From: Escherichia coli
Lineage (GTDB): Bacteria > Pseudomonadota > Gammaproteobacteria > Enterobacterales > Enterobacteriaceae
Reading direction: 5' to 3' (one strand)
Length of the DNA: 64,000 nt
NCBI RefSeq assembly: GCF_041886205.1
Contig: NZ_CP169029.1
Position numbers and translations under genes: made by a program. The notes under the pieces are model-generated. The model was not told the origin of the DNA. It searched no databases and was given only the letters and a program-made list of their open reading frames with translations. Positions within the stretch are counted from its first letter, which is position 1. Each line of letters begins with the position of its first letter. Of the stretch, positions 2,440-18,726 are shown piece after piece.

Positions 2440-3306
2440 ATGGCCGAAAAAAAACAGTGGCATGAAACGCTACACGACCAGTTTGGGCAGTACTTTGCGG
2501 TAGATAACGTTCTGTATCATGAAAAGACCGATCACCAGGATCTGATCATTTTTGAGAACGCTGCATTTGGTCGCGTAATGGCGCTGGATGGCGTAGTACA
2601 AACCACCGAGCGCGACGAGTTTATCTATCATGAGATGATGACCCATGTTCCGCTACTGGCCCATGGTCACGCGAAACATGTGCTGATTATCGGCGGCGGC
2701 GACGGTGCCATGCTGCGTGAAGTAACCCGACATAAAAACGTTGAGTCAATCACGATGGTGGAAATCGATGCGGGTGTCGTATCGTTCTGCCGTCAGTATC
2801 TACCCAACCATAACGCCGGTAGCTACGACGATCCGCGCTTTAAGCTGGTGATCGACGATGGCGTCAATTTCGTTAATCAAACCAGCCAGACCTTTGATGT
2901 CATTATCTCCGACTGCACCGATCCTATCGGTCCCGGCGAAAGTCTGTTCACCTCAGCATTTTATGAAGGCTGCAAACGTTGCCTGAATCCTGGCGGTATC
3001 TTCGTCGCACAAAACGGCGTCTGCTTTTTACAGCAGGAAGAGGCTATCGACAGTCATCGCAAACTCAGCCATTACTTCAGCGACGTTGGCTTTTATCAGG
3101 CGGCGATCCCGACCTATTACGGCGGTATCATGACTTTTGCATGGGCGACAGATAACGACGCCTTACGCCATCTCTCAACCGAAATTATTCAGGCGCGTTT
3201 TCTCGCTTCTGGCCTGAAATGCCGTTATTACAATCCGGCAATCCATACGGCAGCTTTTGCCTTACCTCAGTATCTGCAAGACGCACTGGCTTCACAGCCG
3301 TCCTAA
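2440..3306 (+). CDS. speE: Spermidine synthase
   Basis: 288-aa translation with GGGDG SAM/dcSAM motif; RBS aaggagg upstream; followed by speD. Confidence 0.95.
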
Positions 3307-3321
3307 GGAGAAGATAAGAAA

Positions 3322-4116
3322 TTGAAAAAACTGAAACTGCATGGCTTTAATAATCTGACCAAAAGTCTGAGTTTTTGTATTTACGATATCTGCTACGCCA
3401 AAACTGCCGAAGAGCGCGACGGTTATATTGCTTATATCGATGAACTCTATAATGCCAACCGTCTGACCGAAATCCTGTCAGAAACCTGTTCCATTATCGG
3501 GGCCAATATTCTTAACATCGCCCGCCAGGATTACGAACCACAGGGTGCCAGCGTCACTATTCTGGTGAGTGAAGAACCGGTTGACCCGAAACTCATCGAC
3601 AAAACAGAACACCCCGGCCCACTGCCAGAAACGGTCGTTGCCCATCTCGATAAAAGTCATATTTGCGTACATACCTACCCGGAAAGTCATCCTGAAGGCG
3701 GTTTATGTACCTTCCGCGCCGATATTGAAGTCTCTACCTGCGGCGTGATTTCTCCGCTGAAGGCGCTGAATTACCTGATCCACCAGCTTGAGTCCGATAT
3801 CGTAACCATTGATTATCGCGTGCGCGGTTTTACCCGCGACATTAACGGTATGAAGCACTTTATCGACCATGAGATTAATTCGATTCAGAACTTTATGTCT
3901 GACGATATGAAGGCGCTGTATGACATGGTGGATGTGAACGTCTATCAGGAAAATATCTTCCATACCAAGATGTTGCTTAAAGAGTTCGACCTTAAGCACT
4001 ACATGTTCCACACCAAACCGGAAGACTTAACCGACAGCGAGCGCCAGGAAATTACCGCTGCGCTGTGGAAAGAGATGCGCGAGATTTATTACGGGCGCAA
4101 TATGCCAGCTGTTTAA
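3322..4116 (+). CDS. speD: S-adenosylmethionine decarboxylase proenzyme
   Basis: 264-aa translation [14 protein letters not shown]… from a TTG start; speED operon arrangement. Confidence 0.93.
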
Positions 4117-4121
4117 CGGCT

Positions 4122-4147
4122 CTGGCGGAGCTCCCAGGCTCCGCCAG
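4122..4147. terminator. Bidirectional hairpin between convergent speD and yacL
   Basis: 10-bp perfect stem ctggcggagc/gctccgccag with loop tcccag, followed by T-rich atttattta. Confidence 0.6.
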
Positions 4148-4153
4148 ATTTAT

Positions 4154-4516
4154 TTACTTCTGCTGCACGAAATTACGGTAAGCCGCCACGACCTGCAGAA
4201 AATCCTCAACGCCGCATAGCGACAGGCTTTCTTCGTCGTAGTAGTTCATCCCCTCTTCCATTTCATCGCCAGCGAATTCCAGTTGATTGGCGCGAACCAT
4301 CACCTCTTCACCGTCCATCCACAGAGTGTACTCATGCCCTGCCCGTTGCCAGGACCGTTCGCTACCTTTCAGTGCGTGCGCTGCTTGTTCCACTTCATCA
4401 AGCAAGGCCAGGTTTTCTTTCACCTCTTCATTAAACCAGTGCCCGACCACTTCATGCCCCATGGACATACGCACCTTTACCACTCCGGTAATATCGCGCA
4501 GAAATTCGTAATCCAT
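4154..4516 (-). CDS. yacL: UPF0231 family protein YacL (120 aa)
   Basis: Translation [22 protein letters not shown]…; start at internal ATG rather than longest ORF. Confidence 0.85.
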
Positions 4517-4628
4517 AGTGTGTTCCTCTGCTCCCGGCAATGCGCCGAAATCGCATTGCGCCATTGATGTAATTATCGCAGCCTTACCGGAGAAAAACAG
4601 CGGAACGGCGATGGTTTAGAGATAAAAA

Positions 4629-4658
4629 AATGCCCGGGAATCTCATTCACCGGGCATT
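4629..4658 (-). terminator. Rho-independent terminator downstream of acnB
   Basis: Stem aatgcccgg/ccgggcatt; on the minus strand it is followed by a U-run (plus-strand aaaaaaa at 4624-4630). Confidence 0.6.
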
Positions 4659-4691
4659 GTGTCGTTTATGCGCAGCGCGTGCGCTTACTTA

Positions 4692-7289
4692 TTAAACCGC
4701 AGTCTGGAAAATCACACCATCGGCTTTTTCAGTGTACTGAGAAAGCTGGTTGAAGTTCAGGTAACGGTAAGTATCAACGGCAGTTTTATCCACCTGCGCC
4801 ACGTAGGTCTGGTACTCTTCCGGCGTCGGTAGTTTGCCAATCAGCGCCGCAACAGCAGCCAGTTCCGCAGAAGCCAGGAAGACATTCGCGCCAGTCCCCA
4901 GACGGTTCGGGAAGTTACGGGTCGAGGTGGAAACCACCGTCGCGCCGTCTGCCACACGCGCCTGGTTACCCATACACAGGGAACAGCCAGGGATCTCGAT
5001 ACGCGCACCACTCTTACCGAAGACGCTGTAGTAGCCTTCTTCGGTCAACTGCGCGGCGTCCATACGGGTTGGCGGTGCTACCCACAGGCGGGTCGGCAAC
5101 TGACCTTTGTGTGCATCCAGCAGTTTACCCGCAGCACGGAAGTGACCGATGTTGGTCATGCAAGAACCGATAAACACTTCGTCGATCTTCTCACCCTGTA
5201 CCGCAGACAGCGGTCGCGCGTCATCCGGGTCGTTCGGAGCACACAGGATTGGCTCTTTAATATCCGCCAGATCGATGTCGATCACTGCCGCGTATTCCGC
5301 ATCTGCATCGGCTTCCAGCAGCTCAGGATTCGCCAGCCATTTTTCCATGCCCTGAATACGACGTTCCAGGGTACGACGATCGCCGTAACCTTCCGCGATC
5401 ATCCACTTCAGCAGGACGATGTTAGAGTTCAGGTATTCGATGATCGGTTCTTTGTTCAGCTTGATGGTACAACCGGCAGCAGAACGCTCGGCGGATGCAT
5501 CGGTCAGCTCAAAGGCCTGCTCAACTTTCAGATCCGGCAGACCTTCAATTTCGAGGATGCGGCCAGAGAAGATGTTTTTCTTGCCTTTCTTCTCAACGGT
5601 CAGCAGACCTTGTTTGATCGCATACAGCGGAATGGCGTGTACCAGATCGCGCAGGGTGATGCCCGGCTGCATTTTGCCTTTGAAGCGCACCAGAACGGAT
5701 TCCGGCATATCCAGCGGCATTACGCCAGTTGCGGCAGCAAACGCCACCAGACCAGAACCCGCCGGGAAAGAGATACCGATCGGGAAACGGGTATGGGAGT
5801 CACCACCGGTACCGACGGTATCCGGCAGCAGCATACGGTTCAGCCAGGAGTGGATTACGCCGTCCCCCGGACGCAGCGACACACCGCCACGGTTCATAAT
5901 GAAGTCCGGCAGCGTGTGGTGCGTGTTCACGTCAACTGGCTTCGGATACGCCGCGGTGTGGCAGAAAGACTGCATCACCAGGTCAGCCGAGAAGCCCAGG
6001 CACGCCAGGTCTTTCAGTTCATCACGGGTCATCGGGCCTGTGGTGTCCTGAGAGCCTACAGAAGTCATTTTCGGTTCACAGTACGCGCCCGGACGAATGC
6101 CTTTCACGCCACAGGCACGGCCTACCATTTTTTGCGCCAGCGAGAAGCCGCGATCGCTCTCAGCGACATCTTTCGCCTGACGGAACACATCACTGTGCGG
6201 CAGACCAAGTGCTTCACGCGCTTTGGTGGTCAGGCCACGCCCGATAATCAGCGGAATACGGCCGCCAGCACGCACTTCATCAATCAGCACGTCGGTTTTC
6301 AGTTCGAAGGTCGCCAGCAGTTCGCCTGTTTCGTGGTTACGCACTTCACCTTTGTACGGGTAAACGTCAATCACGTCGCCCATGTTCAGGTTAGAGACGT
6401 CGACTTCGATTGGCAGTGCACCCGCGTCTTCCATCGTGTTAAAGAAGATGGGTGCAATTTTACCGCCGAGGCACAAACCACCGCCGCGTTTGTTCGGCAC
6501 ATGTGGAATATCATCGCCCATAAACCACAGAACGGAGTTCGTGGCGGATTTACGCGATGAACCCGTACCCACAACGTCACCGACGTACGCCAGCGGGAAA
6601 CCTTTCTGTTGCAGAGCTTCAATCTGTTTGATCGGGCCAACAACACCTGGCTGGTCTGGCTCAATACCTTCACGGGCGTTTTTCAGCATCGCCAGCGCGT
6701 GCAGTGGGATATCCGGGCGCGACCACGCATCCGGTGCCGGAGAAAGGTCATCGGTGTTGGTTTCGCCAGTGACTTTGAAGACGGTAACGGTCAGTTTTTC
6801 AGCCAGCGCCGGGCGATTCAGGAACCATTCGGCATCCGCCCAGGACTGCATTACCTGCTTCGCATATTCGTTGCCTGCTTTGGCTTTCTCTTCTACGTCA
6901 TAGAAGTTATCGAACATCAGCAGTGTGTGAGAAAGTGCTTTGGCAGCGATCGGTGCCAGTTTGGCATCATCCAGCGCGTCGATCAGCGGATGAATGTTGT
7001 AACCACCCTGCATGGTACCCAGCAGTTCGATGGCTTTTTCCGGAGTCAGCAGAGGGGATTTGGCTTCGCCTTTAGCGATAGCAGCCAGGAAGCCTGCTTT
7101 GACATAGGCGGCTTCATCGACGCCAGGGGGAACACGGTTGGTTAATAGATCTAACAGGAATTCTTCTTCGCCCGCGGGCGGGTTTTTCAGCAGCTCTACA
7201 AGTGCGGCCATTTGGTTTGCATCCAGGGGTTTGGGCGCAATCCCCTCAGCGGCACGCTCAGCTACGTGCTTACGGTATTCTTCTAGCAC
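4692..7289 (-). CDS. acnB: Aconitate hydratase B (bifunctional aconitase/2-methylisocitrate dehydratase)
   Basis: 865-aa translation beginning (V)[15 protein letters not shown] from a GTG start at 7287-7289; Fe-S cluster Cys motifs. Confidence 0.95.
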
Positions 7290-7643
7290 GACGGTTCTCC
7301 TCGCTCTCATTGTCATAGTGCGGCAGGCGATTCTCTTCACGCTCCTGTGAGACAGCAGTTTGTAGGGTAAATGCCCAGTACCGCAACGGGCAGAATAGCA
7401 GGATTTTGACGAGGTGTTAATCTGTTTACAAAAAAGCAACATAAAAAAGTGGCTGAATCGTTAAGGATGGTCTAGAGATTGTTTCCCTCCGTAAAAACTT
7501 CGTTAATTCGCATGGTGATAATCACCTTTCTCAACGAATCCCAAGATTAGTCAAAATTTAAACTACCGCCTCTTTATACTCGGATTCACAGCACCTGCGG
7601 GTGGCAGTTCGCCGACCATTGCGATTTCCTTGAGATCCGAATT

Positions 7644-9497
7644 ATGAAAATGACTTTGCCGTTTAAACCCCATGTGCTGGCGCTAATTTGCAGTGCCGGG
7701 CTTTGTGCCGCCTCTACCGGGCTATATATAAAAAGCCGCACAGTGGAAGCGCCTGTGGAACCGCAATCGACACAACTGGCTGTGTCTGACGCTGCCGCGG
7801 TTACGTTTCCTGCAACGGTTTCCGCACCTCCCGTAACACCCGCCGTCGTCAAATCCGCATTCAGCACTGCACAAATAGATCAATGGGTCGCGCCCGTCGC
7901 GCTGTATCCCGACGCCCTACTTTCGCAGGTGCTGATGGCATCAACCTATCCGACAAACGTTGCTCAAGCAGTGCAATGGTCGCACGATAATCCACTTAAA
8001 CAAGGCGATGCTGCTATTCAGGCGGTATCTGACCAGCCGTGGGACGCCAGCGTTAAATCACTGGTGGCCTTTCCACAATTGATGGCATTGATGGGCGAAA
8101 ACCCGCAATGGGTGCAAAACCTGGGCGATGCTTTTCTGGCCCAGCCGCAGGACGTGATGGACTCGGTACAGCGATTGCGGCAACTGGCGCAACAAACCGG
8201 CTCGCTGAAGTCATCAACCGAACAGAAAGTTATTACCACAACGAAGAAAGCTGTACCGGTAAAACAGACAGTCACGGCACCCGTCATACCATCCAATACA
8301 GTTTTAACTGCCAACCCCGTCATTACAGAGCCGGCAACAACCGTCATTTCCATTGAGCCCGCCAATCCTGATGTGGTCTATATTCCCAACTACAACCCAA
8401 CCGTGGTTTACGGGAACTGGGCCAATACTGCGTATCCGCCGGTTTATCTGCCACCACCAGCCGGAGAACCGTTTGTTGACAGCTTTGTACGCGGATTCGG
8501 CTATAGCATGGGCGTTGCTACCACGTACGCACTATTCAGCAGCATCGACTGGGACGACGACGATCATGACCATCATCATCATGACGATGATGATTATCAT
8601 CACCACGATGGCGGTCATCGTGACGGTAATGGCTGGCAACACAACGGCGACAACATCAATATCGACGTCAACAATTTCAACCGTATCACCGGTGAGCATC
8701 TTACTGATAAGAATATGGCATGGCGGCACAATCCAAACTACCGTAATGGTGTGCCCTATCATGATCAGGATATGGCAAAGCGGTTTCATCAAACCGATGT
8801 CAACGGCGGAATGAGCGCCACGCAATTACCTGCCCCAACGCGCGACAGCCAGCGTCAGGCGGCAGCAAATCAGTTTCAGCAACGAACACACGCCGCACCA
8901 GTCATTACACGAGATACCCAACGTCAGGCAGCGGCACAGCGGTTTAATGAAGCTGAACACTATGGGAGCTATGACGACTTCCACGACTTCAGCCGTCGCC
9001 AACCACTGACCCAGCAACAAAAGGACGCCGCTCGTCAGCGTTATCAGTCCGCCTCGCCTGAGCAGCGCCAGGCAGTTCGCGAGAGAATGCAGACTAACCC
9101 GCAGATCCAGCAGCGAAGAGAGGCAGCGCGTGAGCGCATTCAGTCCGCCTCGCCTGAGCAGCGCCAGGCGGTTCGCGAGAAAATGCAGACTAACCCGCAG
9201 AACCAGCAGCGAAGAGACGCAGCGCGTGAGCGTATTCAGTCCGCATCACCAGAGCAGCGCCAGGTGTTTAAGGAAAAAGTACAGCAGCGCCCACTGAATC
9301 AACAGCAACGTGATAACGCCCGCCAGCGTGTTCAATCGGCATCACCTGAACAACGTCAGGTTTTTCGGGAAAAAGTTCAGGAGAGCCGCCCACAACGTCT
9401 AAACGACAGTAACCATACTGTCAGGCTGAATAACGAGCAACGGTCAGCAGTACGCGAACGTCTCTCTGAGCGCGGAGCAAGGCGACTGGAAAGGTAA
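7644..9497 (+). CDS. yacH: DUF3300-family protein YacH, function unknown
   Basis: 617-aa ORF with N-terminal signal/TM segment, an Asp/His-rich block and C-terminal tandem Gln/Arg-rich repeats; position between acnB and lpd. Confidence 0.85.
   Translation: MKMTLPFKPHVLALICSAGLCAASTGLYIKSRTVEAPVEPQSTQLAVSDAAAVTFPATVSAPPVTPAVVKSAFSTAQIDQWVAPVALYPDALLSQVLMASTYPTNVAQAVQWSHDNPLKQGDAAIQAVSDQPWDASVKSLVAFPQLMALMGENPQWVQNLGDAFLAQPQDVMDSVQRLRQLAQQTGSLKSSTEQKVITTTKKAVPVKQTVTAPVIPSNTVLTANPVITEPATTVISIEPANPDVVYIPNYNPTVVYGNWANTAYPPVYLPPPAGEPFVDSFVRGFGYSMGVATTYALFSSIDWDDDDHDHHHHDDDDYHHHDGGHRDGNGWQHNGDNINIDVNNFNRITGEHLTDKNMAWRHNPNYRNGVPYHDQDMAKRFHQTDVNGGMSATQLPAPTRDSQRQAAANQFQQRTHAAPVITRDTQRQAAAQRFNEAEHYGSYDDFHDFSRRQPLTQQQKDAARQRYQSASPEQRQAVRERMQTNPQIQQRREAARERIQSASPEQRQAVREKMQTNPQNQQRRDAARERIQSASPEQRQVFKEKVQQRPLNQQQRDNARQRVQSASPEQRQVFREKVQESRPQRLNDSNHTVRLNNEQRSAVRERLSERGARRLER
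9045..9380 (+). repeat. Intragenic tandem repeat in yacH (96-nt period, about 3.5 units)
   Basis: Units starting 9045, 9141 and 9237; the first two are near-identical at the nucleotide level and encode QSASPEQRQAVRE(R/K)MQTNPQxQQRRxAARERI. Confidence 0.85.
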
Positions 9498-15887: not shown

Positions 15888-16047
15888 GGGTTATTCCTTA
15901 TCTATCTAATAACGTTGAGTTTTCTGGAACCTGTCCCATTGAACTCTCGCCGGAAAGCTCAATAAGACAGGTTCTACGTTTAGTTGCCGCGCTTTTATAT
16001 GCGCTTGATTTACAACATCTTCTGGATAATTTTTACCAGAAAAATCA

Positions 16048-16812
16048 CTAATTCTTTCGTTGCTCCAGACGACGCAGAGAACGCTCACGGCGGCTTTCTT
16101 CACGGCTTCTGTCGAGCAAAATTTCTTCGATAAAGGCCAGATGGCGATGCGATGCTTCGCGCGCTTCTTCCGGCTTACCGGCCATAATCGCTTCAAATAT
16201 GCGGGTGCGGTGACTACTCACCAGCGGCAGCATCTCGCGACGCGAATAGAGCAATTCGAAGTTCTGGCGGACATTCTGGGCCAACATCGGCTCCATACAC
16301 CTTAGCAGATGAAGCAGAACCACATTGTGGGCCGCTTCAGTGACAGCAATCTGATACTGGAGTACGGCGTTTGATTCCGCGTCCAGATCGCCAGACTGCT
16401 GCGCCAGTTCTATGGCGTGATGGAGTTCACGGATGCGTTCCTTGTCTTCATCGGTACTACGCAGCGCGGCGTAATAAGCGGCGATACCTTCCAGGGCGTG
16501 TCGTGTTTCGAGCAAGTCATACTGTGACTCAGGATGGTCGGAGAGCAGCTCCACCAGCGGATCGCTGAAGCTTTGCCATAGGCTGCTCTGGACAAAAGTG
16601 CCGCCACCCTGGCGACGAAGCAACAAGCCCTTCGCTTCGAGACGTTGAATCGCCTCACGCAAGGAGGGACGGGAGACGTCAAACTGTTTTGCCAGTTCGC
16701 GTTCCGGTGGGAGTTTTTCGCCCGGGCGGAGAGTGCCTTCGAGGATCAAAAACTCCAGTTGCTGCTCAATCACATCGGAGAGTTTTGGTTGGCGGATTTT
16801 GCTGTAGGCCAT
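16048..16812 (-). CDS. pdhR: GntR-family pyruvate-sensing repressor PdhR
   Basis: 254-aa translation [26 protein letters not shown]… with N-terminal wHTH; start at internal ATG 16810-16812. Confidence 0.93.
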
Positions 16813-16843
16813 GAGTTCCTGTCTTAAGCCACTTGCCGAAGTC

Positions 16844-16860
16844 AATTGGTCTTACCAATT
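16844..16860. promoter_or_regulatory. PdhR operator (perfect palindrome AATTGGTCTTACCAATT) in the pdhR promoter
   Basis: 17-bp perfect inverted repeat 32-48 bp upstream of the pdhR ATG; matches the ATTGGT-N3-ACCAAT PdhR box. Confidence 0.8.
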
Positions 16861-17264
16861 TCATGTCTGTGACGCTAAAGTAACAAAGTATTCACCTTAT
16901 GTCCATACAGGTTTTGATTGAAATCATGAAACTGTGCACATTTTAACAACTTGACATATATAACGTTTCAAAGTTGTAACTATGCACAAATGTAGACTTT
17001 ACGTAGGAAAGGAGTTTTTTAACGATTATTAAACTATAAAAATCCGAATTGAACCGATTCACTTACCAATTTTGTGATTTTTAATTCAATTAAAACGAAT
17101 TTAAATTCATTCTACATATTGAGAGGGGTTGAGGCTGAGCTTTACAAACGGTTTCTTTTTAAGCAACTCATCTTCAACCATGCATAAAGCGGGTGCATTC
17201 GCTGCCGCATACCATTATTCTTGATCTGACGGAAGTCTTTTTGTAACAATTCAAACTTCTTTGA

Positions 17265-17282
17265 TGTAAACAAATTAATACA
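17265..17282. promoter_or_regulatory. TyrR-box-like motif upstream of aroP
   Basis: TGTAAA-N6-AATACA resembles the TGTAAA-N6-TTTACA TyrR box, about 70 bp upstream of the aroP start; partial match only. Confidence 0.3.
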
Positions 17283-17352
17283 ACAAACGGAATTGCAAAC
17301 TTACACACGCATCACTGCGTAGATCAAAAAAACAACCACCGCACGAGGTTTC

Positions 17353-18726
17353 ATGATGGAAGGTCAACAGCACGGCGAGCAGCTAAAGCGCGGCCTTAAA
17401 AACCGCCATATTCAGCTTATCGCGCTGGGTGGCGCGATAGGGACCGGGTTATTCCTGGGTAGCGCCTCCGTAATACAGTCCGCAGGGCCAGGGATTATCC
17501 TGGGTTACGCCATTGCTGGTTTTATCGCCTTTCTGATCATGCGTCAGCTGGGTGAAATGGTGGTCGAAGAACCTGTCGCAGGCTCCTTTAGCCACTTTGC
17601 TTATAAATACTGGGGCAGTTTTGCCGGTTTCGCCTCTGGCTGGAACTACTGGGTACTGTACGTTTTAGTTGCCATGGCAGAGCTGACTGCCGTGGGTAAA
17701 TACATTCAGTTCTGGTATCCGGAAATCCCAACCTGGGTTTCTGCCGCCGTATTCTTTGTGGTGATTAACGCCATCAACCTGACCAACGTTAAAGTGTTTG
17801 GCGAGATGGAGTTCTGGTTTGCCATTATCAAAGTTATTGCGGTAGTAGCGATGATCATCTTCGGCGGCTGGCTGCTGTTCAGTGGCAACGGCGGCCCGCA
17901 GGCGAGCGTTAGCAACCTGTGGGATCAAGGTGGTTTCCTGCCGCACGGCTTCACCGGACTGGTGATGATGATGGCGATTATCATGTTCTCGTTCGGTGGT
18001 CTGGAACTGGTGGGGATCACCGCAGCAGAAGCTGATAACCCGGAGCAAAGTATCCCGAAAGCAACTAACCAGGTTATCTACCGCATCCTGATTTTCTATA
18101 TTGGTTCGTTAGCCGTTCTGCTCTCACTGATGCCGTGGACCCGCGTTACCGCCGATACCAGTCCGTTTGTGCTGATCTTCCACGAGTTAGGCGATACCTT
18201 TGTGGCGAATGCGCTGAACATCGTGGTACTGACTGCGGCGCTCTCCGTGTACAACAGCTGCGTATATTGCAACAGCCGTATGCTGTTTGGTCTGGCACAA
18301 CAGGGTAATGCGCCAAAAGCGCTGGCGTCTGTCGATAAACGTGGTGTACCAGTAAATACCATTCTGGTGTCTGCACTGGTAACGGCGTTGTGCGTACTGA
18401 TTAACTACCTTGCCCCAGAGTCCGCTTTCGGACTGTTAATGGCGCTGGTGGTATCTGCACTGGTAATCAACTGGGCGATGATTAGCCTGGCGCATATGAA
18501 ATTCCGTCGCGCCAAGCAGGAACAAGGCGTGGTAACTCGCTTCCCTGCTCTGCTTTATCCGCTGGGTAACTGGATCTGCCTGCTGTTTATGGCGGCGGTA
18601 CTGGTGATTATGCTGATGACCCCAGGAATGGCGATTTCGGTATACCTGATCCCGGTATGGCTGATCGTGTTAGGTATCGGCTATCTGTTTAAAGAGAAAA
18701 CCGCCAAAGCCGTAAAAGCGCATTAA
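17353..18726 (+). CDS. aroP: Aromatic amino acid:H+ symporter (APC family)
   Basis: 457-aa polytopic membrane protein MMEGQQHGEQLKRGLKNRHIQLIALGGAIGTGLFLG…. Confidence 0.95.
   Translation: MMEGQQHGEQLKRGLKNRHIQLIALGGAIGTGLFLGSASVIQSAGPGIILGYAIAGFIAFLIMRQLGEMVVEEPVAGSFSHFAYKYWGSFAGFASGWNYWVLYVLVAMAELTAVGKYIQFWYPEIPTWVSAAVFFVVINAINLTNVKVFGEMEFWFAIIKVIAVVAMIIFGGWLLFSGNGGPQASVSNLWDQGGFLPHGFTGLVMMMAIIMFSFGGLELVGITAAEADNPEQSIPKATNQVIYRILIFYIGSLAVLLSLMPWTRVTADTSPFVLIFHELGDTFVANALNIVVLTAALSVYNSCVYCNSRMLFGLAQQGNAPKALASVDKRGVPVNTILVSALVTALCVLINYLAPESAFGLLMALVVSALVINWAMISLAHMKFRRAKQEQGVVTRFPALLYPLGNWICLLFMAAVLVIMLMTPGMAISVYLIPVWLIVLGIGYLFKEKTAKAVKAH

Follow-up and report, generated by a model that had tools for sequence, protein, structure and literature searches.

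[quoted passage not shown] For the aroP side, Podlesek et al. 2020 (PMC7142922), summarising the work of Wang, Yang and Pittard, describe a major promoter P1, a second promoter P2 located 21 bp downstream, and a divergent promoter P3 that overlaps P1; together with aromatic amino acids, TyrR recruits RNA polymerase to P3, excluding P1 (PMC7142922, PMC3167631). The same paper describes a strong and a weak TyrR box, cites Wang 1997 for the binding of TyrR to these boxes in the aroP-pdhR spacer, and reports that activation of P3 is dependent on TyrR and phenylalanine (PMC7142922). On the pdhR side, Anzai et al. 2020 (PMC7660256) place a PdhR box, AATTGGTaagACCAATT, at K-12 position 122052—it agrees with the consensus at 14 of 14 bases and is the strongest among their listed genomic-SELEX sites. 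Anaerobic control has been mapped as well: Myers et al. 2013 list an FNR ChIP-seq peak at 121,987 for pdhR-aceEF-lpdA, with a site at -50.5 and direct repression. Finally, Kim et al. 2018 (PMC5888115) describe Cra as a repressor and CRP as an activator of the pdhR operon.

Here we compare these systems with one locus in a 64,000-nucleotide stretch of DNA, referred to as the window. Positions 16780-17390 are 100% identical to E. coli K-12 MG1655 over 611 bp, on the reverse strand, and the conversion used throughout (K-12 = 138904 - window) rests on this identity. The spacer between pdhR and aroP occupies 16813-17352, that is, 540 bp or K-12 121552-122091. It is bounded by the coding sequences of pdhR (16048-16812, minus strand) and aroP (17353-18726, plus strand), both taken from the list of open reading frames. 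Residues 1-228 of PdhR are 100% identical to the K-12 protein by tblastn, the protein matches the Pfam families GntR (E=1e-25) and FCD (E=5e-17), and aceE is the next gene after pdhR. An initial annotation of the sequence had described a 540-bp divergent control region with these boundaries and a very AT-rich composition; both the sequence and the coordinates proved correct, and the GC content is indeed 0.35 in the spacer versus 0.52 in the whole window, with a minimum of 0.29 in 17004-17140.

We are highly confident that the region is the K-12-type divergent control region of pdhR-aceEF-lpd and aroP, and we met no evidence that contradicts this reading. Sequence, position relative to published transcription starts, rarity and conservation were computed here; binding, effector response and repression mechanism come from the literature. 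The palindrome beside pdhR is the published PdhR operator and the TGTAAA motif near aroP is the published strong TyrR box, so that both were already known. The present analysis pins the parts of this densely packed region to exact positions and corrects its geometry: the operator follows the transcription start of pdhR, and the TyrR boxes follow that of aroP. In addition, the published sites for PdhR, FNR, ArcA and TyrR all emerge from phylogenetic footprinting, which also flags one or two further conserved elements.

For the footprinting, 80 loci with relatives of PdhR were taken from other genomes, and 77 of their spacers were aligned with that of the window to give 78 sequences, which cover many enterobacterial genera and Serratia. 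The divergent arrangement of aroP and pdhR is found in all aligned loci, with spacers of 524-653 bp. Within E. coli itself, 4363 of 5423 genomes have the 540-bp spacer in one uninterrupted piece; a 75-mer covering the operator and the core promoter is identical in 5308 of 5423, while a 106-mer from the aroP side is present in only 4292 of 5426. Beyond the known sites, the alignment shows conserved stretches at 16928-17003 and 17141-17221, and between them lies an AT-rich and poorly conserved core at 17062-17140 (conservation 0.40).

Two observations concern aroP itself. Despite the identical spacer, the AroP protein differs from that of K-12 MG1655 at one residue (99.78% identity by tblastn); the window is thus not exactly MG1655. 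The 5' end of the annotated gene, 17353-17358, reads ATGATG, and the second ATG is invariant among the orthologous loci. Since the first ATG is absent in several genera, and is ATA in the allele that carries the usp island (see below), translation of aroP probably starts at the second ATG, 17356, rather than at the annotated 17353.

The pdhR transcript starts at the A at 16870 (K-12 122034), which leaves a 58-nt leader at 16813-16870 on the minus strand. The distance of 58 nt from the ATG was obtained by 5'RACE (PMC2759082, which also lists the promoter sequence), and genome-wide profiling places the start at the same K-12 position with 1225 reads (PMC3415461 supplement). Reading the sequence relative to this mapped start gives, on the minus strand, a -10 hexamer TACTTT at 16877-16882, which agrees with the consensus at three of six positions, and a -35 hexamer TGGACA at 16900-16905, separated by a 17-bp spacer. 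A strict scan of 16700-17450 for sigma-70 promoters and terminators gave no match; the pdhR promoter escapes it because its hexamers are too weak. Conservation of this core promoter is 0.96. The genome-wide start data also contain a minor start inside the pdhR coding sequence, at window 16292 (K-12 122612; 51 reads), which is assigned to aceE with a 405-nt leader and is not the known aceE promoter, which lies 48 nt before that gene.

The PdhR operator, AATTGGTCTTACCAATT, lies at 16844-16860, or +11 to +27 of the pdhR start. The initial annotation had the position and the sequence of this repeat right; its description as a perfect 17-bp palindrome was too generous, as only the 7-bp arms AATTGGT and ACCAATT are complementary and the central CTT is not symmetric—a 7+3+7 repeat in which 14 of 17 positions pair. 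Nor does the repeat overlap the pdhR promoter, as had been proposed: at +11 to +27 it lies downstream of the -10 and -35 hexamers. The +11 to +27 footprint, like the exact P1 and P2 hexamers of aroP, draws on secondary citations and on our own mapping. Quail and Guest reportedly gave, in 1995, an operator position that agrees with +11 to +27.

As an inverted repeat the operator is unremarkable: there are six 7+3+7 repeats in the window, and a second one in the same spacer, at 17079-17095, consists of A and T only and is not conserved. The match to the known PdhR site is another matter. The consensus ATTGGTNNNACCAAT has one exact match in the 64-kb window versus 0.01 expected, a result reached in 1 of 100 shuffles, and the operator carries all 14 specified bases of the PdhR-box consensus (A)ATTGGTnnnACCAAT(T), with its core GGTnnnACC, as given by Anzai et al. 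2020 (PMC7660256). Its centre at window 16852 corresponds to K-12 122052, the position of the published box, and window 16835-16871 has the same sequence as 'PdhRop', the gel-shift probe of Gohler et al. 2011. Exact arms are present in 78 of 78 orthologous spacers, whereas the central triplet varies (CTT in 70, ATG in 3, CAT in 2, AAT in 2 and CTG in 1); fixed arms around a variable centre are the pattern that would be expected of a dimer-binding site with an uncontacted spacer. The proposal that this is the PdhR operator of an autoregulated pdhR-aceEF-lpd operon is thus upheld by the consensus match, the published box, the gel-shift probe and the conservation. A comparable geometry has been built artificially: a 15-bp box placed 11 bp after the +1 of a constitutive promoter leads to repression by PdhR, and the authors of this hybrid-promoter biosensor report relief by pyruvate (bioRxiv 10.1101/2025.07.14.664704). 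A second copy of TTACCAATTT, at 17063-17072, was considered as a PdhR half-site and rejected, as it is not conserved.

Upstream of the core promoter lies the FNR site, TTGATtgaaATCAT, at 16914-16927, which matches TTGAT-N4-ATCAA at 9 of 10 bases and is the only near-consensus FNR dyad in the 64-kb window. Its centre, computed from the sequence, is at -50.5, which equals the value in the table of Myers et al. 2013. TTGAT-N4-ATCA is found in 77 of the 78 spacers, and in 76 of these 77 it stands 68 bp from the centre of the PdhR box. The two ArcA sites of the Park et al. 2013 supplement fall on either side of it: site 2, AGGTGAATACTTTGTTACTTT, at 16877-16897 (K-12 122007-122027; -27 to -7), and site 1, TAGTTTAATAATCGTTAAAAA, at 17016-17036 (K-12 121868-121888; -167 to -146). 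The repeat elements of site 1 are the conserved sub-blocks of that stretch.

At the other end of the spacer, the genome-wide data place an aroP start at K-12 121676, or window 17228, with 76 reads and a 125-nt leader (PMC3415461 supplement). We infer that this start is the published P1, and the placement of the P1 -10 element and of P2 follows by inference from it: the -10 would be TATTCT at 17215-17220 on the plus strand, a hexamer that is invariant across genera. Directly adjoining it on the minus strand is the P3 -10 TGGTAT (17214-17209), the hexamer mutagenised in PMC7142922, which is also conserved across genera; a P3 -35, GACTTC, was deduced at 17232-17237 on the same strand, 17 bp from the -10. 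GACTTC has three differences from the CACTCT of S. bongori and two from the allele of usp strains, the numbers that PMC7142922 states.

The TGTAAA-N6-AATACA motif that had been noticed near aroP and called TyrR-box-like is TGTAAACAAATTAATACA at 17265-17282, +38 to +55 of the aroP start. By the published definition (PMC4374768) a strong box has at least 10 of 12 matches to TGTAAA-N6-TTTACA and an invariant G and C 14 bp apart; TGTAAACAAATTAATACA has 10 of 12, with the G at 17266 and the C at 17281, both conserved across genera. Its conservation is 0.80, with conserved half-sites and a varying spacer, and in most other genera the first box reaches only 9 of 12. The initial annotation was correct about this strong box and missed both its weak partner and the location of the two boxes downstream of 17228. 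The weak box, CGGAATTGCAAACTTACA, was read from the sequence at 17288-17305: it has 8 of 12 matches with the G-N14-C retained, and its centre is 23 bp closer to aroP than that of the strong box, which agrees with the description of a weak partner as a box with fewer than 10 of 12 matches and G-N14-C that lies beside a strong box on the same helix face. A pair of boxes 21-25 bp apart is found in 70 of the 78 spacers (23 bp in 51, 22 bp in 17). With both boxes past the aroP start, at about +38 to +78, the published repression by TyrR works via the divergent P3 and not by simple occlusion of the major promoter.

Roughly one in five complete E. coli genomes, CFT073 and AH21B066 among them, carries in this spacer the usp genotoxin island, the published PAIusp, in which usp is driven by the aroP P3 (PMC7142922). 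The island is about 4.6 kb in size (positions 3241-7847 of locus L084) and encodes a 593-aa protein annotated as Hcp, S-type pyocin and DNase, along with colicin/pyocin immunity proteins. The alignment places its insertion point between about 17175 and 17183, just downstream of P3. The spacer that flanks the island is a diverged allele: its identity amounts to about 84% on the aroP side and to roughly two-thirds over 17003-17175, and is back to 99% at and below 17002. A separate variant is seen in the CFT073 assembly NZ_CP158446.1 (locus L002, 2682-3895), where an IS3-family transposase lies about 180 bp upstream of pdhR; it interrupts the conserved block upstream of the FNR site, so that the similarity to the K-12 spacer stops at position 142.

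That block, at 16928-17003, is 76 bp long and spans -58 to -133 of pdhR. Its mean conservation is 0.74, with many invariant positions, and an AAC-N3-GCACA motif is repeated in and at the edge of it, at 16927-16940 and 16975-16988, 48 bp apart. A CRP site with the sequence TGTGC-N6-TAACA (16933-16948) was considered here and rejected, as its left half is not conserved.

A further element stands out from the poorly conserved AT-rich core. The putative Cra (FruR) box TGAACCGATTCA at 17050-17061 (K-12 121843-121854) agrees with the Cra consensus TGAAnCGnTTCA at each of its 10 specified bases, and TGAANCGNTTCA has no other exact match in the 64 kb. Its conservation is 0.95 versus 0.4-0.5 in the flanks; it is exact in 71 of the 78 spacers, with only the two free N positions varying, and the diverged usp-island allele retains it exactly, with an unchanged distance to pdhR. 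Relative to the pdhR start the box is about 186 bp upstream; relative to that of P3, it is about 145 nt downstream. Descriptions of the published Cra site put it downstream of the promoters, so the box at 17050-17061 may be a different site. A Cra-like box with one mismatch, TGAATCGCCTCA, occurs at 16646-16657 (K-12 122247-122258) inside the pdhR coding sequence, and it is a candidate for the published site. A search of the full-text literature for the sequence of the conserved box returned only unrelated primer matches. That the spacer contains conserved regulatory elements without a published match—the Cra-consensus box and the 76-bp block—is a tentative suggestion on our part, and one that could well turn out to be wrong. 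If true, a distal Cra site could couple glycolytic flux to both divergent promoters, or could block read-through from P3.

Several other explanations of these features deserve consideration. The operator is transcribed, as it lies inside the 58-nt leader of pdhR, and it could in principle act mainly as RNA, forming a hairpin with a 7-bp stem and a 3-nt loop that controls mRNA stability or translation; such a hairpin does appear in the predicted fold of the leader. However, the predicted fold of the leader is no more stable than that of shuffled sequence (z = 0.06), and the arms, being invariant in all 78 spacers, offer no covariation in favour of RNA pairing. The same DNA consensus occurs at many other PdhR target loci and is bound in vitro, and the hairpin matches no Rfam family; we consider a role mainly as RNA very improbable. 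Even less credence is due to the idea that TGTAAA-N6-AATACA is a chance match in AT-rich DNA with no part in aroP control. It is true that the TyrR consensus, at up to two mismatches, has 3 matches in the window versus 1.97 expected, and that 32 of 100 shuffles do as well, so that sequence statistics alone do not set the match apart from chance, which reflects how short the consensus is and does not count against a function. The box draws its support instead from its position, its partner, its conservation and published experiments: the box has the invariant G-N14-C, as does its neighbour 23 bp away, a pair of boxes recurs in 70 of the 78 aligned spacers, the half-sites are conserved and the spacer between them varies, and according to published work both the binding of TyrR and the activation of P3 by TyrR require these boxes (PMC7142922).

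The conservation of the spacer beyond its known sites, at 16928-17003 and 17141-17221, raises the question of whether a small protein, or a structured RNA transcribed from P3, could be responsible. An 18-codon open reading frame begins a few bases after the P3 start, and in E. coli the P3 transcript could form a hairpin of -14.6 kcal/mol; however, the open reading frame is intact in only 32 of 77 loci, and those frames that stay open in the conserved block lack an ATG start and are located upstream of where pdhR transcription begins. The small open reading frames of the spacer were accordingly rejected as genes, their frames being either not conserved or conserved only because the whole block barely varies. 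The hairpin downstream of P3 was rejected as well: only 57% of its pairs are kept, without compensatory changes, and RNAalifold gives no consensus structure. An Rfam search of 16000-18000 at E values up to 1 gave no match, and part of the second stretch, 17186-17221, coincides with the core promoters of aroP and P3. There is, then, only a slim chance that a small protein or a structured RNA explains the conservation. No conserved reading frame and no conserved RNA structure was found in the spacer; the additional conserved elements look like DNA-level sites.

Taken as a K-12-type control region, the locus would work as follows. Transcription of pdhR would begin at 16870 from a weak sigma-70 promoter (TGGACA, 17 bp, TACTTT). 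At low pyruvate, a dimer of PdhR, a member of the GntR family, would occupy the 7+3+7 operator at +11 to +27 and block its own operon, and pyruvate would release PdhR from the operator. FNR at -50.5 and ArcA at -7 to -27 and -146 to -167 would add anaerobic repression. In the opposite direction, aroP transcription would begin at 17228; TyrR would bind the strong box at 17265-17282, and its neighbour, the weak box at 17288-17305, would be bound as well when aromatic amino acids are present. By the published mechanism, TyrR would recruit RNA polymerase to P3, with its -10 at 17214-17209, and the major aroP promoter would be shut out.

The comparison with known systems differs from element to element. 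For Cra operators the likeness is one of sequence and conservation—the putative box has all the specified bases of the consensus and is conserved like a binding site, and Cra has been published as a repressor of pdhR-aceEF-lpd—and the difference may be one of position, as the published site is said to lie downstream of the promoters whereas the box at 17050-17061 precedes the pdhR start by about 186 bp. Among promoters that FNR represses from -50.5, such as ndh, pdhR likewise has a near-consensus TTGAT-N4-ATCA at -50.5 and published direct repression by FNR. Repression of ndh needs two FNR sites; for pdhR, by contrast, the ChIP-seq table lists one. The aroP side is identical in sequence to the K-12 system of TyrR boxes and promoters P1, P2 and P3 (Wang, Yang & Pittard 1997-1999; Pittard 2005; Podlesek 2020), and shares with it a strong and a weak box downstream of the start and an overlapping P3 with TGGTAT. 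The PdhR operator of K-12 pdhR-aceEF-lpd (Quail & Guest 1995; Ogasawara 2007; Anzai 2020) is the same element as that of the window, without any difference: its sequence on the pdhR strand, its coordinates at K-12 122044-122060 and its placement at +11 to +27 are all shared.
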